DNA of 64,000 bases from a virus, in the IMG/VR virus record IMGVR_UViG_3300025381_000009. One strand, 5' to 3'. Positions 4,622-51,348 of the stretch are shown one piece after another. Every line of letters starts with the position of its first letter. Position 1 is the stretch's first letter. The position numbers and the translations under genes were made by a program. The notes below the pieces were generated by a model, which was not told the DNA's origin, did not search any database, and saw nothing but the letters and a program-made list of their open reading frames with translations.

Positions 4622-4627
4622 GCTAAA

Positions 4628-5680: not shown

Positions 5681-5704
5681 AGTGTTCCTTTGTGTTCTGC
5701 TGTG

Positions 5705-5769: not shown

Positions 5770-5804
5770 ATCTGTACCGCATAGCGGGTTTTTAAAGGAA
5801 TCAA

Positions 5805-6627: not shown

Positions 6628-6812
6628 AAGCATTTCCAAAACTAAATGAAAAACAACCCTCTTACCAAACTGGAATGGACTTGAGGGATTGGTTTGCAGG
6701 TTTGGCTATGGAAGGAATTATTTATGAGGGAGTTACTCCAGAACAAACAGCTAAGGCCGCATACCGAATGGCAGATGCAATGATGAAAGAAAGGGAGAAT
6801 AAAGATGAATGA
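6624..6812 (+). CDS. Hypothetical phage protein (LRDWFAGLAM family)
   Basis: Paralogue of 53206..53397 (MTLRDYFAAKAM). Confidence 0.75.
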   Translation: MKAFPKLNEKQPSYQTGMDLRDWFAGLAMEGIIYEGVTPEQTAKAAYRMADAMMKERENKDE

Positions 6813-19718: not shown

Positions 19719-20377
19719 TAAGAATCCTTAGCGATAGTCTGACGATCACCCATACGCAGATCATCTTCAGTTTTAAGTGTAGAAAGTGATTTATCAAACA
19801 TAGCCTGCCAAGTGGGTATCCTTGCATCATTCTTTAAGAATGGGGTCATCTGTAGTAAAGTACCAAAAAGCATGGCATTTGGAGCGTTTTGAGTTAACCA
19901 GTTAGTCTGATTAGTGCTTGATAAAGGCTGAATACGCTCATAAAACAATACCTCGAACTGATAGGATTGATCAGGCGTAGGAGCTATATACCAATGCTCA
20001 TAATCATAATCAGCGTAATAAACAGGGGGGCTTGTCTCTGTATTGTTAGGCCAATAACTGGTCAAATACTCGTATTTTCTCAAGTAGATCGGTTGTTTTG
20101 CGCCAGATGCATCAATGTATTTAAGTGATACTGTTTTGCGCCACCGTGCAGGCTTAGGAATAACGGGGTTTCCTGAAACCATTGTGCTTTGTGCAACATT
20201 TAACTGGCCTAATGTCTTGATTTCCTGAGCAATTTCAAATTCGCAAAGGGAAATAGCAACAGGCACTTGATTAACAACTGCTTGATCATTCCTCTCTAAG
20301 TACTCATAAATGGTACTTACAAGGCTGTCATAAGTCATCACCCAACTTGGAGTTGAGCTTATGGATGAGATTGTCAT
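19718..20377 (-). CDS. Head-tail adaptor (tail tubular protein A-like)
   Basis: MTYDSLV..I..YLER, PVYYA, PTPDQSY, WL..NAP..ML(F)GTL. Confidence 0.7.
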   Translation of the reverse strand: MTISSISSTPSWVMTYDSLVSTIYEYLERNDQAVVNQVPVAISLCEFEIAQEIKTLGQLNVAQSTMVSGNPVIPKPARWRKTVSLKYIDASGAKQPIYLRKYEYLTSYWPNNTETSPPVYYADYDYEHWYIAPTPDQSYQFEVLFYERIQPLSSTNQTNWLTQNAPNAMLFGTLLQMTPFLKNDARIPTWQAMFDKSLSTLKTEDDLRMGDRQTIAKDS

Positions 20378-20423
20378 TGCGCCCCCTAATATACGCCTAT
20401 TTTAGATAGTATCGGGGGAAATG

Positions 20424-21020
20424 TCACCCCAGTACTTGTTCTGTCTGGTGCATGACAACAATTCTTTGCTCAGCACCAAACAAACCACCATTAATTACTT
20501 TGGTCAGACCGTTGTAGTCCTTGGCCTGCGCCAGTCTGTTACACCCGTGAGTTGACCAGAACCATCCCCCAATCGGAGCCGCCCACTTAGGTGTTCTAGC
20601 CCAATCTGGATTTGCCACCAAATCAATCCCCAAAGCCTTACCCGCATGATAAAAGTTGTCATGCCCAGTCAATTGGCAGATCGCTGAGCCTCTGAACCTC
20701 CACCCGTCACCAGAAGCTTCATCCCGATTTCCCATACGAAGTTGGTAAATGTGGTTTGCTATTTTTTCAGGCTTGTGGGCGTACTTCATAGCCTCGTCCA
20801 TCGTTGGGAATCGCTTAGGCCACAGTTGCATGAGAGTCTCAGGACGGTAGTTCAGGTTCTCTTCTAAGCTTCTGAAGTGGTTGGATTCGTAGCTGAACTG
20901 CCCAATGAAGCAGGCTTGCTCCTCAGTTGTGTCAATATTGAAGTTTTTGAACGTCATGTTCAGCGGATCTACCCACTCAGCATTAATACCCAATTTATGA
21001 AGTTGATCAGCGGTAATCAT
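20424..21020 (-). CDS. Endolysin, glycoside hydrolase family 19 (chitinase-like)
   Basis: FIGQFSYES, EENLNY, GDGWRFRG..ICQLTG.DN, TKVINGG..G.EQR. Confidence 0.9.
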   Translation of the reverse strand: MITADQLHKLGINAEWVDPLNMTFKNFNIDTTEEQACFIGQFSYESNHFRSLEENLNYRPETLMQLWPKRFPTMDEAMKYAHKPEKIANHIYQLRMGNRDEASGDGWRFRGSAICQLTGHDNFYHAGKALGIDLVANPDWARTPKWAAPIGGWFWSTHGCNRLAQAKDYNGLTKVINGGLFGAEQRIVVMHQTEQVLG

Positions 21021-31354: not shown

Positions 31355-31879
31355 TTACCACCCTGGGCATTTCCAACGCTTAAGAGATGCTTTTGCCCGT
31401 TCTGCATCACCTTTTGAATGACTTACTACACCAGACATACGGGCACAGAATGAATCTTTTCTGCTTCCACCTTGGGGCTGTGGAGCCTTTAGATGGGAAC
31501 CCGTCTCTCTGTTGTACTTTTCCCTACCTTTGGCGGTTAATCCTGCGCCCTTAGATACTGGCAACTTCTCGCCCCTACCTACCGCAAGACTTGGACCGCC
31601 TTCCTTTTTCTTTACTGTTTTGGCTGACTCTCTGAACGCTTCAGCAGTTGGCGCACCTTTGCTACCAGGCTTACGCATATGTTCTTTAGAGCCGTGAGCA
31701 ATACGCTCTTGTTTAGCGTGAATATTGGCATATAGTCCACCTTCTTTGAATTTTTTACCTTTATCAGCACTGGCAAAATCTTTGCCGACCTTTTGGGAAA
31801 TTCCAACCTTCTTGGCGAAAGCGGGGCTGTGAGCCACCGCCTCCATCAAGTTGTGTTGAGCTTTAGACTTGCTAGGCAT
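31355..31879 (-). CDS. Basic protein built of three small modules joined by KEGG linkers
   Basis: FKEGG and KKEGG separate MPSKSKAQH.., LYANIHAK.. and GLTAKGR..SFCARM..RWKC blocks. Confidence 0.7.
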   Translation of the reverse strand: MPSKSKAQHNLMEAVAHSPAFAKKVGISQKVGKDFASADKGKKFKEGGLYANIHAKQERIAHGSKEHMRKPGSKGAPTAEAFRESAKTVKKKEGGPSLAVGRGEKLPVSKGAGLTAKGREKYNRETGSHLKAPQPQGGSRKDSFCARMSGVVSHSKGDAERAKASLKRWKCPGW

Positions 31880-34589: not shown

Positions 34590-36056
34590 TTACTTCTTGG
34601 CTCTACCGCCGTGCTTTCTAACCATTTCAGGATTTACAAAACCTCTTCCTGCGCCTGCACTTCTTGGAGTAATCCTTGAAGCTTCAGCGTAAGAAGCGGA
34701 ATCTCTAGCCCTTTGCTTAGCATCAGCAACGTCTTGTGGAGATACATCTCTCATATTTTGACCAGGAGCAAATTCCATCATCCTTCGATCATAATCAGAT
34801 ATAGCTCCCCCATCCGCATGATGCTTTACTTGTCCACCCTTTTTGAAGGTGCCAGACAAGCGAGTTATCGCAACTGGTGGAGATGCAGGCTTTTTACCTT
34901 GAGGCATAGCCACAGCAGAACCCTGTTTATTAACAGCGCCCCCCGTGGCGAAGTGCTTTTTTGAAGCCTTGCCTCCGTGCTTAAAGCCACCTGCATTACC
35001 TTCCTTGACAGCGCCAGTAGTCTGCATACGCACACCAGGCTTAGTTGTGTCAGCAGGACGGTTTTCCCAATTTCCACCTTCAACAGTGTCTTTTAGGTTT
35101 AAGTCAGGAGCGGCGCTTCCACCTTTGGCAAAGTGGTGCTTACCACCATGCTTCATGTGAGCCTTACCACCGTGCTTGAATCCACCTGCGTTTGACTCTT
35201 TAACATCACCAGTACCATGTACGGAGTCGTGATGCTCGCCATCAACCATCATTGTGTTTTCATACTTTTTGGCAACATTTTCAGAAACAGTTCCACCAAT
35301 AGCGTATTTACCGCCCTTGCACATAGCTTTGTGGTGCTCCATCATTTTGCGATGATGAGCAGATCCACCTTCTTTGCACTTCTCAGCGTAATGCTTAGCC
35401 ATAGCCTTGTGGTGTTGCATAGATCCTTCTGGGTGACCAGAAACCTTATGAGCCTTACCACCATGCTTGAAACCGCCTGCATTGCCCTCTTTGACCATGC
35501 CAGTGCCATGAACTTTGTCATGGTGCTCACCATCATGCATTTCAGTCTGTAAGAACTTACCAGGTGCTTTTTCGTCAGTAGTTTTAGTCTCAAACTTGTC
35601 GATCCCTTTGCCCATTGCTGAGCCACCTTTTTTCAAGCCGTGATGAGCTTTACCCGCTTTCATGCTTTCATGATGCTTAAGTTCTTTCTCCATCTTAGCC
35701 ATCTTAGCGTCTTCACGATGTTGCTTGGCTTTAGACTCAACCTCTCCACCGTGAGCTTTATGAGCCTTACCACCCTTTTTCATCATGGGTGAGTTCATGC
35801 CTTGCATTGCAGCGCGACGAGCGGCTAAAGCACCCATTAAAGGGTTTTTAGAAGGCATCATTCCACCACGAGCAGGCATATTCATCATGCCACCCACTGC
35901 TTTGTGCATGGATTTATGACCATGCTCTTCGTGCTCTTTCATAGACTTATGATGAGCAGAACCACCTTTTTTGAGCTTTAAAATAACTGAAGGTTCATCA
36001 GTTATCATTTTTGGCATTTGGCTAAAGCCTCCTGCACCTTTGCTTGATTTGGCCAT
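34590..36056 (-). CDS. His/Lys/Met/Gly-rich low-complexity protein with many xxxGG repeats (probable internal core protein)
   Basis: LKKGG, MKKGG, FKHGG x3, FAKGG, FATGG, YAIGG, HADGG etc.; internal repeat DGEHHDxVHGTGxVKExNAGGFKHGGK. Confidence 0.7.
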   Translation of the reverse strand: MAKSSKGAGGFSQMPKMITDEPSVILKLKKGGSAHHKSMKEHEEHGHKSMHKAVGGMMNMPARGGMMPSKNPLMGALAARRAAMQGMNSPMMKKGGKAHKAHGGEVESKAKQHREDAKMAKMEKELKHHESMKAGKAHHGLKKGGSAMGKGIDKFETKTTDEKAPGKFLQTEMHDGEHHDKVHGTGMVKEGNAGGFKHGGKAHKVSGHPEGSMQHHKAMAKHYAEKCKEGGSAHHRKMMEHHKAMCKGGKYAIGGTVSENVAKKYENTMMVDGEHHDSVHGTGDVKESNAGGFKHGGKAHMKHGGKHHFAKGGSAAPDLNLKDTVEGGNWENRPADTTKPGVRMQTTGAVKEGNAGGFKHGGKASKKHFATGGAVNKQGSAVAMPQGKKPASPPVAITRLSGTFKKGGQVKHHADGGAISDYDRRMMEFAPGQNMRDVSPQDVADAKQRARDSASYAEASRITPRSAGAGRGFVNPEMVRKHGGRAKK

Positions 36057-37196: not shown

Positions 37197-38111
37197 TTAC
37201 ATACCAGGTGTACCGAACAACGCTCTAGGATCTGTCCATCCTAGTACATAACGCTCTGTAGCCTTGTAACGCATAGAGTCAGTCTCGAAGTCACCTTCCA
37301 TAGTCTTCTCTAAACGACGACGCATTAACAGCTTCATGCCTTCTGGCGCATCTGTCTGCACCCACCATGCGGTGGCTGAAGTCAAACGTGACAGAACTGC
37401 GGCACCCTCATCCAACAAGCCAATAGACTTGACGGGGTTGATGTCGTTATTAGCTGTTCCCGTGCGTAACACAGATTTGAGCAACACTTCAGCTTGGAAA
37501 ATATTGCCTGGAGCCACAACCAACTGGCGTGGTACCAAACGAATTTTCTTCTGGTTATTGTCAACAGCGTTACGAATCTGAATCAACATTTGCTCTAAAG
37601 ATGTCTGTGACAGCACGGCGGCGGTAGACAATTGATTAGAGAACGTACCAATTGTGATTGGATGCGCTGTGTTGATTAAAGATACGCCATCACCACCAAC
37701 ATATCCTGAGTTAAAGGAGTTGTTGAGGATGTTTGCGGCTAGGGTTTCCTTCGTCTCAATCAAAGATTGTGCAAGGTGTCTTGCATAAACTTGACCAATA
37801 CGGATATGGTCACCGTCCTCAACGAGTGTCTTAGTCAGTGCAAAGGCAAGGCCATACACTAAATAAACATAACGCTGTAGGAATAACACTCCACCCTGTT
37901 GGTATGACACTGGTGTGCCATCAGGGAGTTGTGGTGCGGCGCCAAATCCATAAAGGACTGGCTCTTCATGGTAATTCCTTGGAATACCTTCTTGTTCACG
38001 GAAAACACGTGACCATTCGTCTTCACGAAGATCATATACGCCATCAAAACATTCGTTAAGAATAGGCTCAACGATACTTCTAAAGTCCGTACTTCGCATT
38101 GGTGCGGCCAT
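37197..38111 (-). CDS. Major capsid protein (HK97 fold, Mu gpT-like)
   Basis: 304 aa after scaffold; LFSNQL..LSQTSLE, PRQLVV, DFETDSMRYKATERY..GWTDPR. Confidence 0.9.
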   Translation of the reverse strand: MAAPMRSTDFRSIVEPILNECFDGVYDLREDEWSRVFREQEGIPRNYHEEPVLYGFGAAPQLPDGTPVSYQQGGVLFLQRYVYLVYGLAFALTKTLVEDGDHIRIGQVYARHLAQSLIETKETLAANILNNSFNSGYVGGDGVSLINTAHPITIGTFSNQLSTAAVLSQTSLEQMLIQIRNAVDNNQKKIRLVPRQLVVAPGNIFQAEVLLKSVLRTGTANNDINPVKSIGLLDEGAAVLSRLTSATAWWVQTDAPEGMKLLMRRRLEKTMEGDFETDSMRYKATERYVLGWTDPRALFGTPGM

Positions 38112-38121
38112 AATTTACCCC

Positions 38122-38694
38122 TTATAAAGAATTCACAGATCCGAAGAACTGAGAAGCAGAGTTAACCACACGTACGATGGTATAGGAATCGCCCCAAGCA
38201 TTGCCTGGCGCGGGCGAGAGGTCCACAACACGCATTTGACCCGCGGCGCTAGAACCAACATATGACGATGCACCAAGGGTACATTGTGACAATCCTGTGG
38301 TTGTAGAGCCAGAAGTTAAGTTAGTGAAGTTAAAACCTTGACCGACTGTGGTTTGAGCCATAGATCCGTCAGCTTGAATTTCATAAACAATGTTTTGATC
38401 GTTATAAAAATAAGCTACGCACGATCCAGTGATAAAACTTGTATTGGCAGGCCAATAGTTGCTTACACGGAAACGTCCTGTGGTATCAGTCCATGAAACA
38501 CCCGAAAAAGCCCCAGACCAAGCGCCTGTGGTTGTAACGGGAACGATTACTCCAGAAGAGTAAAGTACTGGTTGTCCCTTCAAAATATTTGAAGAATAAC
38601 CAGAAGTGATGCCTCCTGCTAACGCCTGAGCACGATCCAAGCCGGAGGGATGGAACGAAGGGCGTAAACCGAAAGCTTGCAATGTACTAGACAT
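38122..38694 (-). CDS. Capsid-associated (cement/decoration) protein
   Basis: AFGLRP N-terminus, GAFSGVSWTD, DQNIVYEIQADG; between scaffold and MCP. Confidence 0.6.
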   Translation of the reverse strand: MSSTLQAFGLRPSFHPSGLDRAQALAGGITSGYSSNILKGQPVLYSSGVIVPVTTTGAWSGAFSGVSWTDTTGRFRVSNYWPANTSFITGSCVAYFYNDQNIVYEIQADGSMAQTTVGQGFNFTNLTSGSTTTGLSQCTLGASSYVGSSAAGQMRVVDLSPAPGNAWGDSYTIVRVVNSASQFFGSVNSL

Positions 38695-38717
38695 GAAAAC
38701 TCCTTTTTTAAACTTGC

Positions 38718-39257
38718 CTACCCTGAAAATACGGGTGCGGAAAGCGGTTCATCAATGTTGCCAATACCGTCACCTTCGATTCGGCCTAATGACTTGCCGT
38801 TACTGTCTCTTCCCACTGAAGACTCTGCCTGTTGACGAATTTTATTCGCCTCCTCTAGCGGAGCATCATGATGGAAATGTGTCATCGCATCTTGATACAC
38901 ATCCATTGGTAGCTTAAACAGCAACATTTCATTACAAGCTATATAGCCTACAAACTCACCTGCTTTGACTTTGTTGTTTTCATATCCTGGTACCTCTTCG
39001 GCTTTCACTGGTACGTACCCAATACGAATTCTTTTGTCAATGCTGTCATATGAATTAGTTGTAGACAACCAACACAAATGCCAACCAGGGATCTTAGGGA
39101 CATCTGGCAATGCTCTTTGTGTCCACTCATCACTCCACATCTTGCGACGTTCCTGCGTTGAGACGAACTTTTCTTCTGGTGCCTGACGGGATTCATCTTG
39201 CTGAGCACGATTCTGTCTACCGCCTGCATCTAAAGATTTTTTTAAACGTGATTCCAT
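38718..39257 (-). CDS. Conserved hypothetical head-cluster protein
   Basis: PKIPGWHLCW..T, RIGYVPV. Confidence 0.7.
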   Translation of the reverse strand: MESRLKKSLDAGGRQNRAQQDESRQAPEEKFVSTQERRKMWSDEWTQRALPDVPKIPGWHLCWLSTTNSYDSIDKRIRIGYVPVKAEEVPGYENNKVKAGEFVGYIACNEMLLFKLPMDVYQDAMTHFHHDAPLEEANKIRQQAESSVGRDSNGKSLGRIEGDGIGNIDEPLSAPVFSG

Positions 39258-39259
39258 AA

Positions 39260-40219
39260 TTAGTTACTCCTTGTTAAACGGGCTTCTGATGCGTATCGCT
39301 TGATCATTTTTGTGCGTTTTACTGGGTCATCCCAGAATCCCGCATCCTTCATAGCTCTTACCTGTTCAGGAGTAAGAGTATAAGAATTTCGGCCTGCGCC
39401 TGCCGAAGATGATTCGCGTCCGCTACTTGCTACCACGTTTCTTGGTCGCTGTCTAACTACAGGTTCATCGTCTGTATCTGTATTGTATCTATGCGGTAGA
39501 CGCCTTTGCAAGCGATTATCTAATTCTTCCCAATATTCTTGCCTAGTTGGGTCCCAACCCTCTTCCACAAGACGTTTATCAATGACTTTAGCTATTTCGC
39601 TATCCTCGTCTGGGGCGTCTGGTCGATACCAACTATTACGCTCCATCCACTCTGAGGCATTGCGCTGTAAGCGTGGGTCTGGAATGTTTTGTTTTTGTGC
39701 AGGTTGTTGTGAGGCTTGCTTTTTCAAGTTTTTCAAGGCATCCAACTGTTGGCGTGTCTCATAAAGTAAATCTTGAGCCTTCGCCATTGCCTCCCCATCA
39801 CTGGAGCTTGTTGCCTCTGTTATCTTGAGACGAGCGTATTGAAGCCTAAGTTCTTGGTCTTCAATTGCCTTATCAACCCGAGCTATTTCTGCGCCGTGAG
39901 TCTTACGCTCAACCTGAGATAGGCGTTGCATTAACTCTTCGTTTTGTCGCTTAAGTTGCTGAAGTTGGACATCCTTCTCGGCGTTGTCTTGTTTAGCCCT
40001 TTGGCGACGCATTTTTCTGCGGTTAATCTTTTCCTGACGCACTTCATCTGTGTCGTCTGGGTGATCATCGTCGTGGGATGCTTTTTGTTTAGGCTCCTTG
40101 ATTTCGTCAATAGACTCATCTTGGGGTGCCATGCTTTCGGGTAGGTCAAAGACCACCGAACCATCAACTTCCTCTTTAACTTTTATCTCTTCTTCTGGTT
40201 TTTCTATTACTTCAGTCAT
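39260..40219 (-). CDS. Capsid scaffolding protein
   Basis: Acidic N-terminus, long coiled coil, W..RN.WY, C-terminal LTPEQV.AMKDAG.W. Confidence 0.75.
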   Translation of the reverse strand: MTEVIEKPEEEIKVKEEVDGSVVFDLPESMAPQDESIDEIKEPKQKASHDDDHPDDTDEVRQEKINRRKMRRQRAKQDNAEKDVQLQQLKRQNEELMQRLSQVERKTHGAEIARVDKAIEDQELRLQYARLKITEATSSSDGEAMAKAQDLLYETRQQLDALKNLKKQASQQPAQKQNIPDPRLQRNASEWMERNSWYRPDAPDEDSEIAKVIDKRLVEEGWDPTRQEYWEELDNRLQRRLPHRYNTDTDDEPVVRQRPRNVVASSGRESSSAGAGRNSYTLTPEQVRAMKDAGFWDDPVKRTKMIKRYASEARLTRSN

Positions 40220-40251
40220 GCTTTTCCCTCTTTACGGTAATCTTGCACGTT

Positions 40252-40665
40252 TTACACATATTCCGCCATTGCTAACGGATCGCCTTTAACCCTAGATATG
40301 ACTTCATGATCGTTTAGCACCATAAATAGCGCCTTATCCTCATTCTTGTCTTCTCCAGGAACTGGAACCTCCCATCTATCCCCACCCCATTTAGGAACGC
40401 GAATAAAATCTCCCACCTTTACCCATGAACCTTCAGGCCAAGAAGCCATCGTGTCACGGTTACGGTAGGCCAATGGGCCAATAGCCAATACTTTTGCAAC
40501 CATGTTTGCCCATTTTTCGGTTTCTCGAGTTTCCTCGGCCAAAATAATGCCAGACGCAGTCATTTTTTTCTTAGTTCTTCTAAGTTGTACCAATACTCGT
40601 GCTCCCAAAGGCTCTACACCAGGTTCTACCTCTGGAAAAGCCCATGCCAAGTCAATATCACTCAT
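40252..40665 (-). CDS. groES: GroES-like co-chaperonin
   Basis: EPLGARVLVQ, T.SGIIL, VLAIGP, VKVGD, VLNDHEV. Confidence 0.8.
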   Translation of the reverse strand: MSDIDLAWAFPEVEPGVEPLGARVLVQLRRTKKKMTASGIILAEETRETEKWANMVAKVLAIGPLAYRNRDTMASWPEGSWVKVGDFIRVPKWGGDRWEVPVPGEDKNEDKALFMVLNDHEVISRVKGDPLAMAEYV

Positions 40666-40847: not shown

Positions 40848-40993
40848 TTCTTCTTTTTAGCTTGCTCTAATGGGCTTTTCTTGCCTTCAGATCCACCCTT
40901 GGGTGTATAACTTGTCCCATCAAGCTTTTCGCCTTGCGCTATACGCTTGTGTTGGGGCACATCAATACCCTTTTGCTCATTTTCACTGGCCAT
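40844..40993 (-). CDS. 49-aa basic protein missing from the track
   Basis: MASENEQKGIDVPQHKRIAQGEKLDGTSYTPKGGSEGKKSPLEQAKKKK; AGGAGG RBS; overlaps portal stop. Confidence 0.65.
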   Translation of the reverse strand: MASENEQKGIDVPQHKRIAQGEKLDGTSYTPKGGSEGKKSPLEQAKKKK

Positions 40994-43535
40994 AATCACC
41001 TCCTAAGTGTCGTTGTGCTTCATTTTGAAGCGAAATTGCAGTGTCATACTGCTCTTGCTGAAGCTTGGCGGCGTCCCTTGTCAGTTGCGCCGAAGCTATT
41101 CGCTCTTTAGTCAGATTGTCAGTAGAGTTGATGGCTATGTCCAACTCCCTCTGACTCTGTACATTTTGTTTTTCATTTGCCAATTTGGCCTGTGCAATCT
41201 GAGTTGTAGCTTGCATTTGCTGACCCTTGAGCGCCATTTCTTGCTTATCACGCTCAGTTCTACGTTGTGTCTCGGCCATTGATGTCTGAATAAGCGCCTG
41301 TGCATCTGCATCAGGTTGTTGCGCCTGTTGTTGTGCTTGTTGCCTTAGTTCTATCAAATGTTGGAAATCAGGCATCAGTTGGGCAAAGATCTTGTTTTGT
41401 AAATCCATTCCCACGTGCTGAGATGCCAAAGCAAAAATCTTGTCAATCTGCGCCGTAAATTTAGGATCTTGGTATTGAATAGATTGTTTCTTGTCGTCCT
41501 TATTTGCATAACCATTCATCTGCTGTAAATACCACATAGTCATGTGTTGCTTTAAATGGTCAATCATAGGTATGACCAACCCATTAGCAATAATAGGATT
41601 GGCACCTAATAATGGGTTTTGCATAAAATCAAAGTGCGTTTGAATGTGAGCCAAGTGGTCTTGCTCAGGGTATGCGTTAGCCGCTTGACCCAGTGACATG
41701 GCCACATTCTCATCCGCGGGGTTTTGTTTCTTAGGCTCGGCCTCTTCAACCATTAACTCATTGAGTCCTGGTACTTTCATCTGTTTCATAAAACGCTCAA
41801 TCACAACCTTTTGATTGAACTGTGCAGGGTATTTGTCCATCAATGCCATAACAGCCTGAGATTGCGCCATCCTTTGCGTTTCAGAGAAAATATGTGGGTC
41901 TGAAACCGGCACTATATCTGTGTTGCGCTCAAAGTCTTCTTTGGATATTTCCAAATCTTTGACAATCTCGCCTTTCCTTTGGTCATCTAGATACCAACGG
42001 TTAAGTCTGCCAAGAATTTTTAGGACCCTAGCTTGAGATTGATGCAACCTAGCGTGGATGGCTGAGAATACGGCAGATCCTTGCTCAATAAGGGCTTGTG
42101 TGGTACCTACAGGCGCTTGCGCTGTGACGTCAGCTATCTTCTCCTCAGCAGTGGTTATAACTCCCTTAGCCGCGTTATCTAACCATCCAAGCAACTCAAA
42201 CAAAACAGGGCTAGGAGGATTAAAAGGCATAGGCATAGCAATTTGCCTGATATCGTTGATACCTGGACCTGCTTCAATCTCCGCAACCTGCGTAACCTCG
42301 ACCTGTTGAGATTGACCACTAACCTTAGCACCCTTAAGCTTAAGCATAGTAGCAGAGTTGTTGATATGTGCAGTATCGAGTAAAGCGCGTAAAGCACCAG
42401 TAAGAGCGGCGCTAAGGCCACCGATGAGATGAGGGAGGCCAACTGCATAGGCTCCTCTCCACGGAATGAACTTAAATTCCACCACCCAGTCAAGCTTGGT
42501 TTTTGTTTCATCGCCGTCCTCCCAGTTTCTGTATAAACCAACAACCTCGTGGTCTAGTGCGTCAATCATTAATATGTAAGGTGCCATATCCCCATCTGTA
42601 TATTTATCGTCTTCAAACTCTAACCATACATATGAATGATAAAAACGTCTAACTCCATCTTCGTTGTCCTCATAGCGCTTGCCTTCAATCTTGTTGTTGG
42701 CTTTTTGTGGACCAGTAAGCTCTGGCTCCATTGTGGCACGTATTAAATTAACATCACGATACATACCAGACTTGATGCGCTTTTTAACTTCCCACTCTGT
42801 AATTTCGTGTACTTCTGTAGCCCGTTGAGCAGTGTAGAAGTTGGACGCAGCGAACGGTACAATAACTCTATCAATTGGCAAGAACTCTACGCAAGGGCGT
42901 TTTTTATCGTCGTCATACCACATCTTGAAGTATTGGGAACCACCAAGAGGAAGTTGGGTCAATAACTGCTCTTGTTCGTCGCGGAACTCCTCAATCTGCT
43001 CAGTGATCTGCCAATTCATAAACTCTACCTTACGCTCCGCACGTTCGGTTTTGGCTTTATCAACATCACCTAATATTTTTGTCTTCACTGGCCCATCAGG
43101 TGGAAACATTTCTTTAATGGCTCTGGCCGCAAAGTCTACGCAAGACTCAGCCATCACAGGATGAACTACCTTGGAAGCCCCAAAGAACGTCGCACCGCCT
43201 GGTGAATCATTGCCCATGCCAGTACGCCTAATACCATCTTCATATTGTTTGTCTCTTAGTTTTCGCGCTTCCTTATCTTTTTCAATAAGGTCTGCATACT
43301 CAAGCGCCAATCCTTTAACATCAAATACCTCGGCCAAGTTTTCGTAGAACTTCTTGTCCTCCGATGGTCCTTTAAAGTCTGGGTCATGAACAATAACAGA
43401 ACCATCAGCCAGTTCCTCAAGTTCCATATCCTCTGGAGGCATACCAAATTCAACCGAGCCGTCTTCGTTCTCAGTCATTTCCATGCCGTCAATGTTACGG
43501 CCATAGTCTTGTTCAATGGGCATTTGTGTTGCCAT
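40983..43535 (-). CDS. Portal protein
   Basis: 850 aa; VHPVMAESCVDFAARA, GSQYFK.WYD, PVGTTQALIE, Q-rich coiled C-terminal barrel. Confidence 0.9.
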   Translation of the reverse strand: MATQMPIEQDYGRNIDGMEMTENEDGSVEFGMPPEDMELEELADGSVIVHDPDFKGPSEDKKFYENLAEVFDVKGLALEYADLIEKDKEARKLRDKQYEDGIRRTGMGNDSPGGATFFGASKVVHPVMAESCVDFAARAIKEMFPPDGPVKTKILGDVDKAKTERAERKVEFMNWQITEQIEEFRDEQEQLLTQLPLGGSQYFKMWYDDDKKRPCVEFLPIDRVIVPFAASNFYTAQRATEVHEITEWEVKKRIKSGMYRDVNLIRATMEPELTGPQKANNKIEGKRYEDNEDGVRRFYHSYVWLEFEDDKYTDGDMAPYILMIDALDHEVVGLYRNWEDGDETKTKLDWVVEFKFIPWRGAYAVGLPHLIGGLSAALTGALRALLDTAHINNSATMLKLKGAKVSGQSQQVEVTQVAEIEAGPGINDIRQIAMPMPFNPPSPVLFELLGWLDNAAKGVITTAEEKIADVTAQAPVGTTQALIEQGSAVFSAIHARLHQSQARVLKILGRLNRWYLDDQRKGEIVKDLEISKEDFERNTDIVPVSDPHIFSETQRMAQSQAVMALMDKYPAQFNQKVVIERFMKQMKVPGLNELMVEEAEPKKQNPADENVAMSLGQAANAYPEQDHLAHIQTHFDFMQNPLLGANPIIANGLVIPMIDHLKQHMTMWYLQQMNGYANKDDKKQSIQYQDPKFTAQIDKIFALASQHVGMDLQNKIFAQLMPDFQHLIELRQQAQQQAQQPDADAQALIQTSMAETQRRTERDKQEMALKGQQMQATTQIAQAKLANEKQNVQSQRELDIAINSTDNLTKERIASAQLTRDAAKLQQEQYDTAISLQNEAQRHLGGDYGQ

Positions 43536-43537
43536 GT

Positions 43538-46500
43538 TTATCCTCTTGTACTTAATTCGTGACGCATTATTTCTATGTTGTCAGTTATTTGAACATTGGC
43601 TTTTTTATTTGCCTTTTTAGCTTTAACCCTACCACCCTTTTTCTGACCAGTATATTTTTTAATTAAGTCGTTGTATTGTCCGACTTCATTTAAATATTGG
43701 TCATCAACCAATTGGTGAGGAAATACTTTTTGTATGGTTCCAGTAAAGTCAGTAGGATTCTTAGTCGATCTAACGTGTTGAGTAGCATCTGGAAATGTAA
43801 TTTCAAATGGTGCAGGAGGGGTCTGTGGCTGCAATGCTAATCCTTGAATGCCTTTGTTATAAGTATTGTGATTAGCCGTGTCTGTTAATTCAGCGCCCGG
43901 AACCATCTTACCCGCAGACAATCCAGTTAAATTAACCTCCATGTTACGCAGTGCAGGCTCTGTAATGGCCCATTGAATATCCAATCCATTTGGCAATCCA
44001 TGAGCACTGGTAATGTCAGGAGTTTTCATCCTACTGTTGTACCATTTACGTAACTCTGGATCTTCTTGCATAGCTTTGTATGCGCTTTCTGGATCAGCTA
44101 TACCAGGCCAATGCGGAAAATTAATGTGCTCATACTCACCAGTCTTAGCATTTTTCTTAACATAGCCATTAGCAATGATGTTATCAAAGCTATACATCTG
44201 TTCTGGTTTCATCTTTGACAAATCAGTAGCACGAAGGTTTGCATCTGCTAAATGCATAGCAAAGTTGTTAGCTACTGGACCCATACCCAAATGCTGACCA
44301 ATGACACGGCTTGGTTCGTAATAACCCGCTAATCTTGTAATCTTATCTTGCGCCATTTGAGCGGGATCTTCACCAGAGGCCCAAAATAATGGATGCTCAA
44401 GCGACATTTTGCCGAGTCCATATTTTGAACCACCTTCCTGTATAGAGTTGATGTCTTCTATATCTCCTGCATGACGCAAGATTGAATCAGAAATAGTTTG
44501 GTCTCCAGGAATAGCTACATTCACATCGCCAATTTGTGGTGTATATGCGTCTGCCTTTTGAGCGGTTCCAGTTGGTTGTATCTGATACGGAAGGCCCTTA
44601 AGCCTTTCGCTCTCCCTCATTGATCTTCCTGCAAGATTAACCGTCTTAGTCGAGTTCTCAGGCCTGACGTGCTCACCAATCATCTGCTTGGCAACTCGCG
44701 TAGCAATTTTGTCAATATCTTCTAAAGTTTTTGGAGTAGATCTTGGTATGCTCAAAGGAACAGCAGGTACTTTCTCGGCCTTGGTTATAAATTGACCAAC
44801 TTTCTTGAGAACATTATTAGTTAATGATCCACCGCCTGCCATATGAACCTCATGCCTCATCATGTCCAAATCGTCTGTTACGTGGACTTTACCGCCCCTT
44901 TGATAGTTTGGCATAAACTCTAAAGGATTGAGTGTGACAGACCCGTTAGCAAGCTTTAAAGATGGGTTTATGAAGCCTGGGTGTTTTACTTGTCCACCAT
45001 CTGCATAGGCAGGTAAACTTTCTGTGGCTACGTTTTGTTTCATCTCTGGTGTGAATTCCATGTAATGAAGAGGAGTAGAGTTTAGTTCTCTAGCTTTTAT
45101 GTTTGCTTCTTGTTGCGTTGGATGGCTTGAAATTATGTTGTCATTACCATCCATGACATTAAAACTATCGCCCTCGATTGTTCTGTTTGCGTAATGTTTA
45201 CCACTATTTAATACTGGTAACTCATTAAGCTTCATCTCAGCGCCGTATGGCTTACCAATGTCGTTGAAGGTGTTGGGGATGCGCTTGTCGTATGCGGCTT
45301 TCATGCCCTCGCCACCAATATTCAAATCTTGATTTGCTAACTCTCTCCAACGATTGCCATCAAATCCACTATTTTCACTTACATCAAAAGGCTTGGATTC
45401 AAGCAGTTTACTAGCGGCTTCCTTCCCAATGTAATCAGGTAATTCATGTGGATTAATATCTTCATCAATTACTTTATTTCCACGATGATCAAAAGCTTGT
45501 AGCTTCCCCGCTGTTGGCTCTCCATGTAAATGCTCACCAAACTTACCAGTTCCAGAAGCAGTGTCAACATAAATAAGCTTGTTTATTTGCTTAGCCAAGC
45601 TATATCTATCTGCCTGCTCTTTCCCGGGGGTCAATGCTATTGCGTCATACCCATTGTCAATGGCGTGTTTGACTAAGTCCTTGCTGACCATGTGCTCCCA
45701 ATTATTTTTGAATGGAGCGTCTGGTACTGCATTTATATTTTGTCTTGTCAAATGATCAAGATCATACATCTGACTATTTAATTCAAGCAATTTAGGCGTT
45801 ATTCCATTTGCTTCTTCCATCAAACTTTCAAATTTTAGTCCTGCCTCTGGCTCTCTTAAAGCTTGCTCATGCAAAATTCTTCTGCGCTTGTTAAGATCAT
45901 CAAATGTTTGTTTTAGTTCTTTTAATTGCTCTATTTTTGCTTCTGGATTTGAGTCCTTATAACCATACTTACGTCCATCCTGATGCCAATCAGATTGAAT
46001 CTCCTCAACATGTAAGATTTTCTTGCCATCAGGTGTTCTACGGTCAACTGTTCGAGCACTAGCTAATACATTAGGCTCAGCACCGAAATGATGTTCATTT
46101 GCCACAAAAGGTGGTTGTCCTTCTGGCTCATACTTGTACAAATGCTCCTGATAATTATTACCACCAGGAAGCTTAAAACCCTCATGGTGTGTCTGATTCT
46201 CATCTATCTCATGATTTTCAATATGAGATTCAGCATCCTCTCTCGATGGGAATGGATGGGCTGTGACTGGTTCACCATTGCTATCGACAACCCAGTGTTT
46301 GTCGTCTAGTATGCTATCAGGATTGTGTTTAATAATCTGTAAAGGTTCTGCGTCATTACTCAATATTTTTTTATATACTTTTGGCACAGGACGTTTAGCA
46401 AGTTCAGCTTGGAACTCATCCTTAGTCATCTTAGGCAGATCGTTGATCTCGTGCAAGTTTCTGTCTGCCAGTTCAGCCTTCTTTACGCCGGGCTTCTTGC

Positions 46501-49246
46501 TAAGCTCAATGATAAACTCTTTGCCCGTACCCTTACTCCTTGGCAACTCAGCCGCGGTCTTATCCACAGCAGAGAATAGTTTTGATACTCCTTTGCCAAT
46601 CATCTTGTCCACAATCCCACCGCCTGCAAATCCTTTGGGGCTATCCTTCATCTGGATCTCATGGCGCATCATATCCAAGTCATTAGCAACATGAACCTTA
46701 CGCTTGACCCTTCCACCTTTAGCTAAACCCTGTGGATTATTAGGAGTTACTGTTGGCTGTACAGTAGGAACATCTCCTACTTTGTTACGAAGCTCATCAA
46801 TTTTTCCAAGATTATATAGTTGAGTCTTTAATGGATCACCTTCACCATGTTCTTCTGGATTATTTAATACTTTTTTTATTTCATTAAAATGGTAAGGAAA
46901 TTCTGGATGAATTGATTGCAACGATCTACGCTCAAGCTCATTCATCTCTTGTTGAGTATAAACTGGCTCATTAGTTGAAAACTCTTTGCTAAGAGCATCA
47001 TTAAATTCTCTAGTTGCTTGACGATGAGGTTCAAATGCAGGATGAGTATCTAAAAAATCGTTTGCGTTTTTAACCATTGACTCAATATGAGGAGCAACTT
47101 GTTGGTGTAAAACATTTTCTTCGTCTTTAGTTAAATAATCTGGTACTTTTAAACCAATACTTTCTCCCAATTTTTTTAACTCAGGATGAGTATCAACAAA
47201 TCCAGAGTTCTGTATATCTCCCTTAATAGGAAAGCCAGTAGTACGTTGGAAGTTCTGTACCATTGGAATGTACTTATCTACAGGCTTTTTGTTGCCTTTA
47301 CCTTTAATCTGAACAATGTCGTCTGGCTGTGGTGGAACACCCGCTTCTTTTAACGCTTGAATCGTATGCTCATCTGTCAAATTTTGAATGTCAGGATTGC
47401 GTTGTCTCCATTCACGAACATATTGACCGTATTGTGCTTTTGTACTCTGTGGTAACATGGCAAACGCTTCACCACTAACTGGATATGGATTTGGCTTAGT
47501 TTCAATTGTTACATGAGGCTCACCCTTAGCATCCCTCAAGCTAAATATGCGTGAACGTCCTTCTAATACGTCAGGACAATAGCCACCAACACAGTGACCC
47601 ATTGTGTCGCCTTCATACTGTAGGGCATCAGATAGTTTTTGATATGCATTTTCACTGTGTGTTTTTTCTGTGGCATTTTTTAATGCCTCTTCAGGAGTTG
47701 CGTAAAACAATCCTTTATCGCCAGAGATAATGTCGCCATGTGGCCCTTTAACGAACCAAGGCGTGTTTTGAAAATCCGCCCTATCATCTTTTGTCACCGT
47801 GTAACCTTCGGGTAACTTATATCCCTCTGGCATTTTTTCAGGTGCCAACTCAATCCATTTGTGACCAGATGGGTATTCTTTGACTACGGGCATACTTTCA
47901 GTCTGCTTAATGGCAGTCTCAGCCATCTTCTTAGCCATATCCTCGTTGTACTCATGCGCTCTACGAACCGCTCTATCAATGCTGTAGTTCTTTAGATCTT
48001 CTGGTTGTATTCGACCGTTTGCCAAATCCTCTTTAAGTACATCCATTAAATGATCAAATCCTAAAGTTTCCAAATCAAAAGCATGATGTACTGTATCTTC
48101 TGGATTCTTTTTAAGTAACCAAGGATTTTCATGAACAGGACCAATTTCAGTTTTAACAAAAGGATCTTTTTCTAGTATTTTATTAAATGTTAAACCTTCA
48201 CCACCAAACGGTTTATCACCTGCCACTTCTTTAACTTGGTTCATGTAATGATTTGCCTCTTCCTCATTCTTAAACGATTGAGCAGGCAAAGAACCACCTC
48301 TTACTTGATATCTATTCTCATTTAAATATTCTTTAACCGGGACATTATTAATTGATTTATCAGTTAATTTTTCCCATTTCTTACCAAGTTCTGTAGTAGC
48401 AAATCCTTTCTCTGGTAAATTTGCTTCTCTTCTTTTGTTATAAATAAGTGGCCCAGAAATATGGCTATCATCAATTGGAGCGTGTATTATTCCTTGGTCA
48501 GCCAACTTACGTATTGGGTCGTGCTCAGTACCCATTTCATTTTTAACGTAATTGGTTAGATTTTTGTCAATCCATTTGTTAACGGCAATCTCATTATTGT
48601 GCTCACGCAAACGACGAATCGATCTTTCTTGCAATGGATCAGTTGGGTCTTTTGCCGACTGCTCAAATCCTTCAAAAAGCGATGGACTAATTAATCTGTT
48701 TTCGGACTTCAATCCTTTTAAAAATCCTTCAGGGCTATGATTCAACCAACTACCACCCTTGGGCTTGACAGCGAACATAGCCATCTGTGGCTCAGCAAAT
48801 GAACCAGGCATTAACTTCTGGCCTGTAGCAACCCTGTCTGCAATCTCTTGCCCAACCATCTTGGCGCCTTTTACCGCCGCCTCACCCGCTCCAGGGATAA
48901 CAGCAAAGCTACCACCGAAGTCAGCCATCTTGTTGAGGTTAGAGTTGGGATCTTTGGCTAAGTCAGGTATCAAGCCCTTGATGTCCTCAGAGCCTCCAGG
49001 AATAGTGCCTGGCTCATACCCTTCAAACTTCCTGCGACGGACGTCACGTGCCATGTTATGCAAACCAATGGCTGTGTTAGCCATGTCAACAGGCAATCCT
49101 GCTGTAGTTGCAACAGCACTGCGTCCACCAGAGTAGATCATGTCGAGCAATGCTCTGGCAGGTATGCCCATGCCAATTGCATCTGCTTTGATTTGTTCAA
49201 GTGTCAGGGGTTTGTTTGCTTTAGGATTGGGCATAGCACCTCGCAA
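43538..49246 (-). CDS. Large polyvalent virion protein with PcfJ-like domain and EEIQSDW domain
   Basis: 1,902 aa; YEGDTMGHCVGGY...IFSLRD..G.PHVTIE (PcfJ-like); HF...NVLA.AR..DR...LHVEEIQSDWHQ; GG/MRHE linkers. Likely start ATG 49234. Confidence 0.7.
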   Translation of the reverse strand: MRGAMPNPKANKPLTLEQIKADAIGMGIPARALLDMIYSGGRSAVATTAGLPVDMANTAIGLHNMARDVRRRKFEGYEPGTIPGGSEDIKGLIPDLAKDPNSNLNKMADFGGSFAVIPGAGEAAVKGAKMVGQEIADRVATGQKLMPGSFAEPQMAMFAVKPKGGSWLNHSPEGFLKGLKSENRLISPSLFEGFEQSAKDPTDPLQERSIRRLREHNNEIAVNKWIDKNLTNYVKNEMGTEHDPIRKLADQGIIHAPIDDSHISGPLIYNKRREANLPEKGFATTELGKKWEKLTDKSINNVPVKEYLNENRYQVRGGSLPAQSFKNEEEANHYMNQVKEVAGDKPFGGEGLTFNKILEKDPFVKTEIGPVHENPWLLKKNPEDTVHHAFDLETLGFDHLMDVLKEDLANGRIQPEDLKNYSIDRAVRRAHEYNEDMAKKMAETAIKQTESMPVVKEYPSGHKWIELAPEKMPEGYKLPEGYTVTKDDRADFQNTPWFVKGPHGDIISGDKGLFYATPEEALKNATEKTHSENAYQKLSDALQYEGDTMGHCVGGYCPDVLEGRSRIFSLRDAKGEPHVTIETKPNPYPVSGEAFAMLPQSTKAQYGQYVREWRQRNPDIQNLTDEHTIQALKEAGVPPQPDDIVQIKGKGNKKPVDKYIPMVQNFQRTTGFPIKGDIQNSGFVDTHPELKKLGESIGLKVPDYLTKDEENVLHQQVAPHIESMVKNANDFLDTHPAFEPHRQATREFNDALSKEFSTNEPVYTQQEMNELERRSLQSIHPEFPYHFNEIKKVLNNPEEHGEGDPLKTQLYNLGKIDELRNKVGDVPTVQPTVTPNNPQGLAKGGRVKRKVHVANDLDMMRHEIQMKDSPKGFAGGGIVDKMIGKGVSKLFSAVDKTAAELPRSKGTGKEFIIELSKKPGVKKAELADRNLHEINDLPKMTKDEFQAELAKRPVPKVYKKILSNDAEPLQIIKHNPDSILDDKHWVVDSNGEPVTAHPFPSREDAESHIENHEIDENQTHHEGFKLPGGNNYQEHLYKYEPEGQPPFVANEHHFGAEPNVLASARTVDRRTPDGKKILHVEEIQSDWHQDGRKYGYKDSNPEAKIEQLKELKQTFDDLNKRRRILHEQALREPEAGLKFESLMEEANGITPKLLELNSQMYDLDHLTRQNINAVPDAPFKNNWEHMVSKDLVKHAIDNGYDAIALTPGKEQADRYSLAKQINKLIYVDTASGTGKFGEHLHGEPTAGKLQAFDHRGNKVIDEDINPHELPDYIGKEAASKLLESKPFDVSENSGFDGNRWRELANQDLNIGGEGMKAAYDKRIPNTFNDIGKPYGAEMKLNELPVLNSGKHYANRTIEGDSFNVMDGNDNIISSHPTQQEANIKARELNSTPLHYMEFTPEMKQNVATESLPAYADGGQVKHPGFINPSLKLANGSVTLNPLEFMPNYQRGGKVHVTDDLDMMRHEVHMAGGGSLTNNVLKKVGQFITKAEKVPAVPLSIPRSTPKTLEDIDKIATRVAKQMIGEHVRPENSTKTVNLAGRSMRESERLKGLPYQIQPTGTAQKADAYTPQIGDVNVAIPGDQTISDSILRHAGDIEDINSIQEGGSKYGLGKMSLEHPLFWASGEDPAQMAQDKITRLAGYYEPSRVIGQHLGMGPVANNFAMHLADANLRATDLSKMKPEQMYSFDNIIANGYVKKNAKTGEYEHINFPHWPGIADPESAYKAMQEDPELRKWYNSRMKTPDITSAHGLPNGLDIQWAITEPALRNMEVNLTGLSAGKMVPGAELTDTANHNTYNKGIQGLALQPQTPPAPFEITFPDATQHVRSTKNPTDFTGTIQKVFPHQLVDDQYLNEVGQYNDLIKKYTGQKKGGRVKAKKANKKANVQITDNIEIMRHELSTRG

Positions 49247-49279: not shown

Positions 49280-49414
49280 TTAATCAACCAAAGGTGGGGC
49301 GAACCACATAAAGCAGTGTTTTCCATTTTCAAATAATGACGATATATCAATAAAAGTACTGGCGCTAACCCAATATTTCGCCCCTTCATGATCATACATC
49401 AGATCATTGAGCAT
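49280..49414 (-). CDS. Possible 44-aa ORF between terL and the polyvalent gene
   Basis: MLNDLMYDHEGAKYWVS...; ATG overlaps terL end; no homology recognised. Confidence 0.3.
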   Translation of the reverse strand: MLNDLMYDHEGAKYWVSASTFIDISSLFENGKHCFMWFAPPLVD

Positions 49415-50885
49415 ATGGATTACCCCTTTGAACTGGATTGGCATCAATTAAATCTTCTGGGTCATAGTCGTCTCTAGGCGGAGGATCTATGTTTAAGAAC
49501 CCTGCATCCCTCAACCACCTAAGAGCCTGTGTGAGCGCATCAACGTAATCATCATGTGTTGCATCAGGAAAAGCACAAATCTGGCTTATGGCGCCTTCTG
49601 CCCAGTCTCTGACGTATCCCTTGTTAACACTAGACTCAGGCACCCAGACTCTTCCTGCCCGTATGATATTGGCCACAATTGAAAGCCTCTGAACCTTATC
49701 TGCTTTACCAGGGTTATAGCTTTCGACAGGAAGTTGAGCACGTTGTAAGTCTTGTATAAGACTGATACCCGCGCTCTTATCCTCTACCAGAATCATTTCT
49801 ATGCGCTTTTTGTCTTTGCCTTCACCATACACCACCTCGAACTCATCCATAACCCTTGGCTTGAGGTCTGGATACTGTAAGCGATCTTGCCACGCATCTA
49901 ATATAAGCACACTCATTGGAGCGTCTAATGGCTTAAACACACCAAATACCAAGCAAGCAGTAGGATCGTTTTGTGACTTGTCTGTATAAGCACAGTCCAA
50001 ACTCATGCAGATAAACTCTAGCTTAGGTAAAGGCATAACATCGCCCTGAGAATTAAACGCAGGCCAGAGCTTGAACCACTTACGCTTAACAATACCTGTT
50101 AATTCAGGATCTAATATCTCAGCCAACACTTCCTGTCTGTAAAGTGCAGAATCAGGGTCATACTGCTCGATTTGTTTCTTAAAGTTAGCCGATAGGTTAT
50201 CAATGTTGGCGTAGGTGGATGCAGTGGTCAGAGATACATCCTGTCCATTTCGACCCACCAACTCGACTATTAAATCTTTAGGCTTAGGCGTTGTCGTACA
50301 CATAAGTTGTGTTTTGTTGCCTAGTCGGATCGAAAAGCTCAGCAGATCCCAAGCTTCTTGGAGGTAATCCCAAGCAGCCAACTCATCGAGCCATCCACCA
50401 TGAAACTGTGGGCCGCGGAACCGCTCAGGCTCCGAGGCGGGGATGCCTTTAATAATAGAGCCGTTGATCAGGGTTATCTCATTATCGTCCTTGAGGTGCT
50501 TTTTAATGAGAATCTGGGGTATGACATTAACCAAGCCAGAGTCACCCATGAAGCAGACGTCTTTTAGGTCTGAGTGCGTTGGAGCGCCAACCAACCATCT
50601 AGTCTTGGGCTTGCTCCATGCTTGCCACCAAAGCCACTCCGCCGCCAGTCTGGTCTTCCCCGCCCCCCGTCCCCCGAGCACTAAAGCAATTGACCAGTCC
50701 CAACTCTCAGGCACTTGGTGAGCATGGGCTATTGATAGCCATTTGATCCTCGATGCGTAGGCAAGTTGATCCTCTGGCGGTAATACAGCAAAGTGAGCCT
50801 TGACCTCTGGAGAGGTAAGTATCTCAATAACCTCGTCAATCTCCTGCGTTTGCACTTTGTTTCTTAAGCATAAGGTGTTCAACAA
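49404..50885 (-). CDS. terL: Terminase large subunit
   Basis: Walker A GGRGAGKT, RFRGPQFH..WLDELAAW, TTTPKP, nuclease D(C)AY...EDKSAG...HDDYVDA; start may be GTG 50855. Confidence 0.95.
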   Translation of the reverse strand: MLNTLCLRNKVQTQEIDEVIEILTSPEVKAHFAVLPPEDQLAYASRIKWLSIAHAHQVPESWDWSIALVLGGRGAGKTRLAAEWLWWQAWSKPKTRWLVGAPTHSDLKDVCFMGDSGLVNVIPQILIKKHLKDDNEITLINGSIIKGIPASEPERFRGPQFHGGWLDELAAWDYLQEAWDLLSFSIRLGNKTQLMCTTTPKPKDLIVELVGRNGQDVSLTTASTYANIDNLSANFKKQIEQYDPDSALYRQEVLAEILDPELTGIVKRKWFKLWPAFNSQGDVMPLPKLEFICMSLDCAYTDKSQNDPTACLVFGVFKPLDAPMSVLILDAWQDRLQYPDLKPRVMDEFEVVYGEGKDKKRIEMILVEDKSAGISLIQDLQRAQLPVESYNPGKADKVQRLSIVANIIRAGRVWVPESSVNKGYVRDWAEGAISQICAFPDATHDDYVDALTQALRWLRDAGFLNIDPPPRDDYDPEDLIDANPVQRGNPYAQ

Positions 50886-51348
50886 CAGTGTTCATTGCGT
50901 CCTTGGCGGTCACAATAATTTCAGACTGCATGGGGTTTTCCCTATCGCCGGCGATTATCGTCCTGTCGCCGTACTTCTTGGGGTTCCACTTAGCTAGGAG
51001 CTTTAGCTTGATCTCAGCCCTCATCTTGACCAGTTGGACATACCCTGGGTCAACCCTTCCTCCACCCTCGGTAAGTATTCTTTCGGGTTCTTGGCTAATC
51101 TCATTGAGGATGTCCTCAGCTATGGCATCCCCTCCTTGATCACGTGCGTGTGCGATGGCTCCCGATAAATTAGGGTCTTTATGCATCCACTCATAGATCT
51201 TCTGCCAGGCAGGCATATGATCATCTCTACATATTTGTCTTAGTGGCTCCCCATTACTTAGCCTTTGACAGATCTCATCTGCTAGTTGAGGCGTGTATTT
51301 TGATGGGCGGCCAATCTTCTTCTTTTGTGGGGCGGTTACGTTATCCAT
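50836..51348 (-). CDS. terS: Terminase small subunit
   Basis: GRPSKYTPQLADEICQRLSNGEPLRQIC..MP, KLLAKWNPKKYGD. Confidence 0.9.
   Translation of the reverse strand: MDNVTAPQKKKIGRPSKYTPQLADEICQRLSNGEPLRQICRDDHMPAWQKIYEWMHKDPNLSGAIAHARDQGGDAIAEDILNEISQEPERILTEGGGRVDPGYVQLVKMRAEIKLKLLAKWNPKKYGDRTIIAGDRENPMQSEIIVTAKDAMNTVVEHLMLKKQSANAGD

Follow-up and report, generated by a model that had tools for sequence, protein, structure and literature searches.

In this study, we analysed a 64,000-nucleotide stretch of viral DNA (IMG/VR record IMGVR_UViG_3300025381_000009, here called the window), focusing on one large minus-strand gene located between the genes for the terminase large subunit (terL) and the portal protein. 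The encoded polyvalent protein comprises three large modules (M1, M2 and M3), each followed by a Gly-Gly (GG) motif and a copy of a short repeated peptide, which we call the tag. Our tentative reading, to which we give a probability of about 0.4, is that this protein is an accessory and probably head-packaged cargo, organized as a chain of units that each end in a recognition tag read by a single phage-specific partner. The gene and its parts are as follows, all on the minus strand.

43538..49234 (-): gene of the putative polyvalent cargo protein; likely start ATG 49234, start given by the open reading frame (ORF) caller TTG 49246
48797..49234 (-): N-terminal region N0 (aa 5-150), which varies across the family and shows 79% identity in a relative whose overall identity is 58%
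46727..48796 (-): module M1 (aa 151-840), found in most relatives and containing the PcfJ domain
47486..47629 (-): PcfJ match PF14284 (aa 540-587), which includes GHCVGGYC
46616-46720 (-): tag 1 (aa 843-877), with KGG, a basic stretch, VHV-ANDLD-MMRHEI and a spacer ending in GGG
44897..46606 (-): module M2 (aa 881-1450), or EEIQSDW domain, encoded by a gene of its own in at least 10 related phages
44828-44899 (-): tag 2 (aa 1450-1473), RGG-KVHV-TDDLD-MMRHEV-HMA-GGG
43637..44812 (-): module M3 (aa 1479-1870), the near-universal core, modelled with a predicted local distance difference test (pLDDT) above 90; minimal members consist of M3 alone
43541-43642 (-): tag 3 at the C-terminus (aa 1869-1902), with KKGG, a Lys-rich spacer, VQI-TDNIE-IMRHEL-STRG and the stop codon

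A sequence-only reading of the window had described three tags directly after GG motifs, with the two internal ones followed by GG again, and its positions agree with our translation to within a few bases; both internal tags (tags 1 and 2) are in fact followed by GGG. When all six frames of the window were scanned, the motif had no match outside the polyvalent ORF. Because the three DNA copies differ from each other at synonymous sites, it is the peptide that is conserved, and the copies are not the result of a recent duplication. Translation of 43538-49246 on the minus strand gave a single open frame, in which the true start is probably ATG 49234, with a product of 1,898 aa and about 210 kDa; this start was preferred because TTG 49246 sits within a GAGGTG ribosome-binding site and because the length of 1,898 aa agrees with that of the 98%-identical protein P0002.

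An exhaustive search of 1.84 billion representative proteins identified 299 clusters (50% identity) matching the tag profile at E<=1e-3, and the consensus of 35 aligned copies reads (K/R)GG-x-V-x-h-(S/T)(D/N)(D/N)(P/L)D-x-M-(R/Q/Y)-x-E-L, with the Met invariant. A total of 198 tags were found among 221 family proteins, including 98 terminal tags (2-11 residues from the C-terminus) and 100 internal ones. Every internal tag (100/100) has a GG no more than 11 residues after it, the background for a window of that size being 0.096, and 188 of the 198 tags have a GG ahead of them, most commonly 8 residues before the Asp. Among 122 non-redundant representatives, the tag was terminal in 78 instances and internal in 82, and GG followed 79 of the internal ones. 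The possibility that the tag would be absent from relatives, or never terminal in them, is therefore contradicted by these data, as the tag is conserved there and terminal in about half of its occurrences.

Between the window protein (P0001) and P0005, which are 58% identical overall, tag 1 is 98% identical, compared with 44% for M1 and 52% for M2; judged by this sequence comparison, the tag is under selection and more constrained than the domains flanking it. Tag classes follow clades, and the variants include MRHE, MRLE, MYME and MFME. MRHE was paired only with MRHE in all 20 of the 20 multi-tag proteins, and clade-specific residues are common to the tags of one protein, as would be expected if one partner reads all of them. 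In approximately 0.99 Mb of related phage DNA, all tag-bearing ORFs (36/36) carry M1, M2 or M3, and the tag is exclusive to the slot between terL and the portal gene. A tblastn search with one tag against 50,697 phage records returned no match, and the whole polyvalent protein matched just three of these records.

Related viral contigs having both terL and the portal gene, 52 in number, were then used for a locus survey; contigs of this phage group come from freshwater samples. One slot gene was present in 38 of these loci and two in 13, and one locus had none above the 200-aa cut-off; the polyvalent gene occupies the terL-portal slot in the window and in 51 of the 51 related loci having a slot gene. 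In 10 of the 52 loci, M2 exists as a gene of its own, located between a polyvalent gene of the form M1-tag-M3 and the portal gene, and the tag closes this stand-alone M2, with only a short basic tail between it and the stop codon. Its N-terminus, a short amphipathic helix followed by ...KGTGAEF, aligns with the residues after the GGG that follows tag 1, and the proteins that start with M3 begin where M3 begins after GGG in the window protein. Because these termini align in this way, the fused protein can be regarded as a head-to-tail chain of complete units, in which the second GG occupies the position of the stop and start codons of the split form. In the split loci, the upstream polyvalent protein ends in a different peptide, of the DDLIxEERPL type, and not in the tag.

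More than 645 database proteins are related to the window protein, and their coverage drops exactly at the tags: M1 (aa ~150-700) and M3 (~1475-1875) are widely shared and M2 (~880-1450) is much rarer. The module orders among relatives include M1-M3, M3-M1, M2-M1-M3, M3-M2-M1 and others, and the tag is kept C-terminal to the shuffled modules. The sequence-only reading had suggested that the gene was built by fusing independently tagged units and had proposed a search for stand-alone genes ending in the tag; such genes exist (M2 in 10/52 loci, that is, at least 10 related phages) and, together with the module shuffling, support the suggestion. Its description of a modular platform between terL and the portal gene also holds, in view of the slot loci and the stand-alone tagged M2. 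Short tag-bearing proteins from the databases were considered as further stand-alone genes, and most of them resemble fragments or products of mis-called starts, so they were not counted and the claim is based on complete loci. The 890-aa slot protein of MW202545, which has a tag-like end by eye (INAMKHEML...KKAK), scored only 1.2 bits on the tag profile and was not used.

The smallest slot occupants, in loci L055, L056 and L064, are 525-aa proteins consisting of M3 only. Since the minimal members are M3 alone, M3 seems to be the core of the slot, with the other modules as add-ons. In cultured Caulobacter phages, whose major capsid protein (MCP) is 80% identical, terL is followed directly by the portal gene except for a tRNA, and no slot gene is present; because their slot is empty, the slot gene is accessory rather than an essential part of the head. 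One of them, Caulobacter phage RW (MK929790), has a tRNA-Val between terL and the portal gene and no cargo gene, and its terL (locus L085, 2445-5247) is annotated in two pieces split by a gene for an S-adenosylmethionine-dependent methyltransferase. A 12-kb IMG/VR contig, UViG_3300021138_000437 (L005), shares 100% protein identity with the window over M3 and tags 2-3, and is also 100% identical at the portal protein, the Cpn10-like and scaffold-like proteins and the 179- and 190-aa head proteins.

An AlphaFold2 model covering tag 2, M3 and tag 3, built on a 70-sequence alignment, gave each of tags 2 and 3 a helix of ten residues (pLDDT ~60) surrounded by sequence below 50, beside the M3 core above 90; for tag 2, the helix spans residues 1460-1469 (pLDDT ~59) with flanks below 50. 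Because tags 2 and 3 are modelled as short helices in disordered segments, the tag is a conserved linker peptide, and the alternative that it belongs to a folded domain is not supported.

PcfJ was the sole Pfam match in the window protein itself (PF14284, E 4e-7, 30.4 bits against a gathering cut-off of 25). The sequence-only reading had named a PcfJ-like domain with GHCVGGY, and this motif lies at 47579-47599 inside the PF14284 match; the motif of its EEIQSDW domain was located at 45986-46006. The closest structures to M1 aa ~450-685 were those of HAT1 (Z 7.8, root-mean-square deviation 3.7, 130 aligned residues), 47 of the top 50 rows were acyl- or acetyltransferases, and a Foldseek match to ESCO1 had a probability of 0.97 but an E of 0.11. 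These matches are consistent with a predicted GNAT-like fold, although they are of middling strength. M1 was also considered as a GG-specific cysteine protease acting through GHCVGGYC and was rejected, because the H and C are replaced in 15 of 85 relatives and the fold is GNAT-like.

M2 matched unnamed phage proteins only. When the structure of M3 was compared by VIA-align, weak matches to PUA-like domains of the YTH/ASCH/EVE type (Z 5.1-5.8) were obtained; Foldseek against the PDB gave none at E<=0.001, a shape search of the ESM Atlas reached TM<=0.24 at best, an M3 profile found no credible match among PDB sequences, and M3 matches no Pfam family. Feature searches of the ESM Atlas with M2 and M3 returned just unnamed viral clusters, below 0.9. 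The M3 fold occurs in 17 viral proteins of the BFVD, which are mostly unnamed, one being annotated as a 'structural protein' of a Flavobacterium phage. Extra domains found in relatives include ART-PolyVal, LPD23, RadC/JAB, ParB-N and GNAT. We infer an anti-host effector role, which the sequence-only reading had also put forward, solely from the ART-PolyVal, RadC/JAB, ParB-N and GNAT domains of these relatives.

Each unit opens with a short amphipathic helix, continues with a folded domain and a (K/R)GG hinge, and closes with a tag of 20-35 residues. The tag itself runs from a short x-V-x-h stretch through a helix cap, (S/T)(D/N)(D/N)(P/L)D, into the helix x-M-(R/Q/Y)-x-E-L, and its tail is short and mostly basic. 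Fused units carry a second GG after the tail, at the position that stop and start codons take when the genes are separate. According to the recognition-tag reading, one phage-specific partner may read the tag at the end of each unit and bring that unit into the assembling head, and the GG flanks may either keep the tag accessible or act as cutting sites. By analogy with the T4 capsid-targeting sequence (CTS) and with the C-terminal loading peptides of HK97-fold shells, loading into the procapsid is the most likely job of the tag. A recognition peptide is favoured because the tag is at a free C-terminus in half of the cases, occurs on stand-alone cargo, is very strongly conserved, is restricted to the slot and has clade residues shared among its copies. 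Head packaging, delivery into the host, the partner and cleavage are predicted elements of this scheme.

A shorter joint of 9-10 residues, GG-x-V-(H/R/K)-(M/L)-x(1-4)-GG, was also found, with 68 copies in 60 of 226 proteins, and in one relative it brackets the ART-PolyVal domain. At the sequence level, the tag looks like this short joint with a capped helix inserted. In the unrelated 61-kb phage MW202675 (L004), the protein at 4248-6791 has an M2-like domain (EELQSDW), then the joint KRGGRVGFAQGG and then another domain; because the short joint is present there, it is used beyond this phage group. GG-rich sequences also occur elsewhere in the window. The gene at 34590-36056 (-) encodes a 488-aa His/Lys/Met-rich protein of the virion cluster with 23 GG against 10.6 expected (z = 4.4), in which repeated KKGG(S/K)AH units are accompanied by a FKKGGQVKHHADGG joint resembling those of the polyvalent family; its homologues in related loci carry FKKGGKVKMAEGG. 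The 174-aa product of 31355-31879 (-) matches phrog_16759 at aa 1-46, phrog_16028 at aa 47-92 and DUF6321 at aa 110-169 and, because its blocks match three different PHROG families, it can be considered a fusion of small proteins at KEGG sites.

Several observations weigh against the recognition-tag reading. As the short joint already links domains, the tag may simply be an elaborated linker. Many family members have no tag, including most of the M3-first forms; they carry only the short joint, or end in one of several different GG-preceded peptides, among them the DDLIxEERPL type and the EIDxIAxxLYEELYG type, each of which is terminal in 34 of 34 cases and never internal, and in L023, L025 and L027 the first slot gene encodes an M1-only protein of ~810 aa that ends in YKECNCHG and lacks the tag (the second encodes an M1-M3 protein ending in ...SLYEELYG); because of the tagless members and these three untagged stand-alone M1 genes, the tag cannot be the universal packaging signal of the family. 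The head can evidently assemble without the cargo, since the Caulobacter phages with the 80%-identical MCP lack the slot gene. A partner of the tag was sought and none was identified, and no further virion protein encoded in the window carries the tag, judged by the scan of all six frames.

The alternatives differ in the function that they assign to the tag. In a stronger version of the loading idea, which we consider unlikely, though less so than the other alternatives, the tag would be a transferable address label that loads any bearer into the head, and cutting at GG would then free the units. Rather doubtful, too, is a polyprotein-processing explanation, in which GG-tag-GG would be a cleavage cassette, a protease would free M1, M2 and M3, and the tag would be the recognition element or a discarded spacer. 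The presence of GG after 100/100 and 79/82 internal tags and before 188/198 tags is unusually strict for a merely flexible linker, and the GG sites coincide with the termini of stand-alone M2 and M3-first proteins, so that cuts would recreate near-native ends. KKGG-x-(V/A)-H is repeated in the GG-rich 34590-36056 protein and also occurs at the fusion junctions of 31355-31879, and Gly-Gly-X cutting is a property of adenovirus and African swine fever virus proteases. These points are countered by the finding that stand-alone M2 and the final units keep a tag with nothing after it to release, and that GG is present within the folded M3 core too. Moreover, no peptidase family was recognised in the head or late genes with Pfam, PHROGs and NCBIfam; the best matches of M1 (GNAT-like) and M3 (PUA-like) are not protease folds; and the MCP has no propeptide-like extension and is accompanied by a separate scaffold, a layout that probably goes without a head protease in most cases.

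The tag might instead be a passive joint, a hinge-helix-hinge spacer with no partner in trans, whose C-terminal copies would be leftovers of the same building block. The helix-less short version links domains in many relatives, the tags are of low confidence in the model with no confident docking onto M3, and neither a partner nor a protease was found in our searches. We regard this as improbable, because about half of the tags, among them those closing stand-alone M2, are at a free C-terminus and have no following domain to hold apart, and because the Met is invariant, the motif is strongly conserved (tag 1 is 98% identical beside domains of 44-52%) and clade-specific residues are common to all tags of one protein. 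Least probable of all is a docking pair, comparable to the docking domains of split polyketide and non-ribosomal peptide synthases, in which the tag helix would bind the N-terminal amphipathic helix of the next unit and fix the unit order, for example for sequential exit through the tail: every unit, fused or stand-alone, does open with a G-x-L-x-x-L-K-type amphipathic helix right after GG, a helix-GGG-helix is modelled at the junction of tag 2 and M3, and the genes of split loci are adjacent and translationally coupled, but no unit follows the last tag, the upstream protein of split loci ends in the DDLIxEERPL type instead of the tag, and both helices have low model confidence.

Synteny of the head genes also counts in favour of the recognition-tag reading, which we prefer. 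The gene order terS, terL, cargo, portal, Cpn10, scaffold and MCP is conserved between the window and the related loci, and the neighbouring genes in the window are as follows.

50836-51348 (-): terS, upstream of the polyvalent gene
49404-50885 (-): terL, directly upstream of the polyvalent gene
40983..43535 (-): portal protein (850 aa), directly downstream of the polyvalent gene
37197..40665 (-): Cpn10-like, scaffold-like (319 aa), 179-aa and 190-aa proteins and the MCP
37197-38111 (-): MCP, in the head module

The Cpn10/GroES-like gene (40252-40665, minus strand) lies between the portal gene and the scaffold-like gene, and all related loci, phage DSL-LC04 and Caulobacter phage RW have it in this position. 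In the scaffold-like protein (39260-40219, minus strand, 319 aa), the N-terminus is acidic, the middle forms a coiled coil, and a stretch of strong conservation in the C-terminal part (...SPEQVRAMKDAGFWDD...KMIKRYA...) resembles a coat-binding helix-turn-helix. Complex prediction for this protein with the tag gave a score of 0.21, with the mark at 0.32, which speaks neither for nor against binding. A total of 31 head and late proteins were searched for peptidase families in Pfam, PHROGs and NCBIfam and none was found; a host enzyme could possibly act as the GG protease. The polyvalent protein had no match to MuF-type families of Pfam, PHROGs or NCBIfam at E<=0.1. Elsewhere, the region 19718-21020 (-) encodes an SU10-type adaptor (PF24175, E 2e-22) and, beside it, a weak glycoside hydrolase 19 match below the Pfam cut-off, and the adaptor match suggests a short-tailed, SU10-like virion.

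Polyvalent proteins delivered by phages are predicted to be common, and this family provides a grammar that can be read from the sequence, namely unit, GG, tag, GG, as well as natural experiments in which the same unit is both fused and free-standing. If the tag is a loading or processing signal, this would explain how a phage can acquire new effectors just by fusing genes, and proteins of choice could be brought into phage heads by means of a short peptide. The address-label version, if true, would mean that effectors delivered by phages carry a plug-and-play cargo code, one that the sequence itself reveals in hundreds of uncultured phages. The cultured Caulobacter phages, in which the slot is empty and the head module closely related, represent a laboratory chassis; they include Caulobacter vibrioides phages of the RW/GB2A group.

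Polyvalent proteins of phages and conjugative elements, predicted to be packaged in the head, were described by Iyer, Burroughs, Anand, de Souza and Aravind in 2017 (PMC5512222). The window protein resembles them in having several unrelated domains per chain, in belonging to a portal-terminase phage, in being encoded beside head genes and in its mosaic combinations, and the ART-PolyVal, LPD23, RadC/JAB, ParB-N and GNAT domains of its relatives fall within their repertoire. Unlike them, it lacks a MuF anchor as well as zincin or other peptidase domains, and its core, M3, has no Pfam match. The GG-bracketed tag and joint are not mentioned in PMC5512222, in which the words 'glycine' and 'linker' have 0 occurrences. 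Our literature searches found nothing relevant on Gly-Gly cleavage of phage virion proteins, nor on PcfJ. Polyvalent proteins and cargo-targeting peptides are thus known, whereas the grammar of GG-bracketed units and the tag appears to be undescribed in the literature searched.

In adenovirus and African swine fever virus, proteases cut at GG at the junctions of mature polyprotein products. The window protein is similar in having GG at its unit boundaries and differs in that no clan CE or other protease was recognised among the head and late genes. With regard to delivery, phi24B gp47, a polyvalent protein found in virions by mass spectrometry (bioRxiv 10.64898/2026.04.10.717836), and the virion RNA polymerase of N4 (PMC13434306) are giant multi-domain proteins of short-tailed phages that travel inside the head and are ejected into the host. 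No sequence similarity of the window protein to either of them was found and no repeated end-tag has been reported there; packaging of the window protein is predicted. The T4 CTS, in comparison, is an N-terminal peptide of ~10 residues that the prohead protease gp21 cleaves off at L/I-x-E (PMC9026906, PMC3012670). Like the CTS, the tag is a short portable peptide on unrelated cargoes and would direct them into the prohead, a targeting role that we propose by analogy; in contrast to the CTS, it sits on the C-terminal side of its unit, has a length of 20-35 residues and is flanked by GG, and no head protease was recognised. Encapsulin cargo-loading peptides and the capsid-targeting tail of the HK97 maturation protease are short C-terminal peptides that follow a flexible linker and act in the interior of an HK97-fold shell. 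Their sequences are unrelated to the tag, which is in addition repeated inside one chain and bracketed by GG, while the likeness lies in the position of the terminal tags, 2-11 residues from the end of the protein and preceded by a segment that is modelled as disordered.

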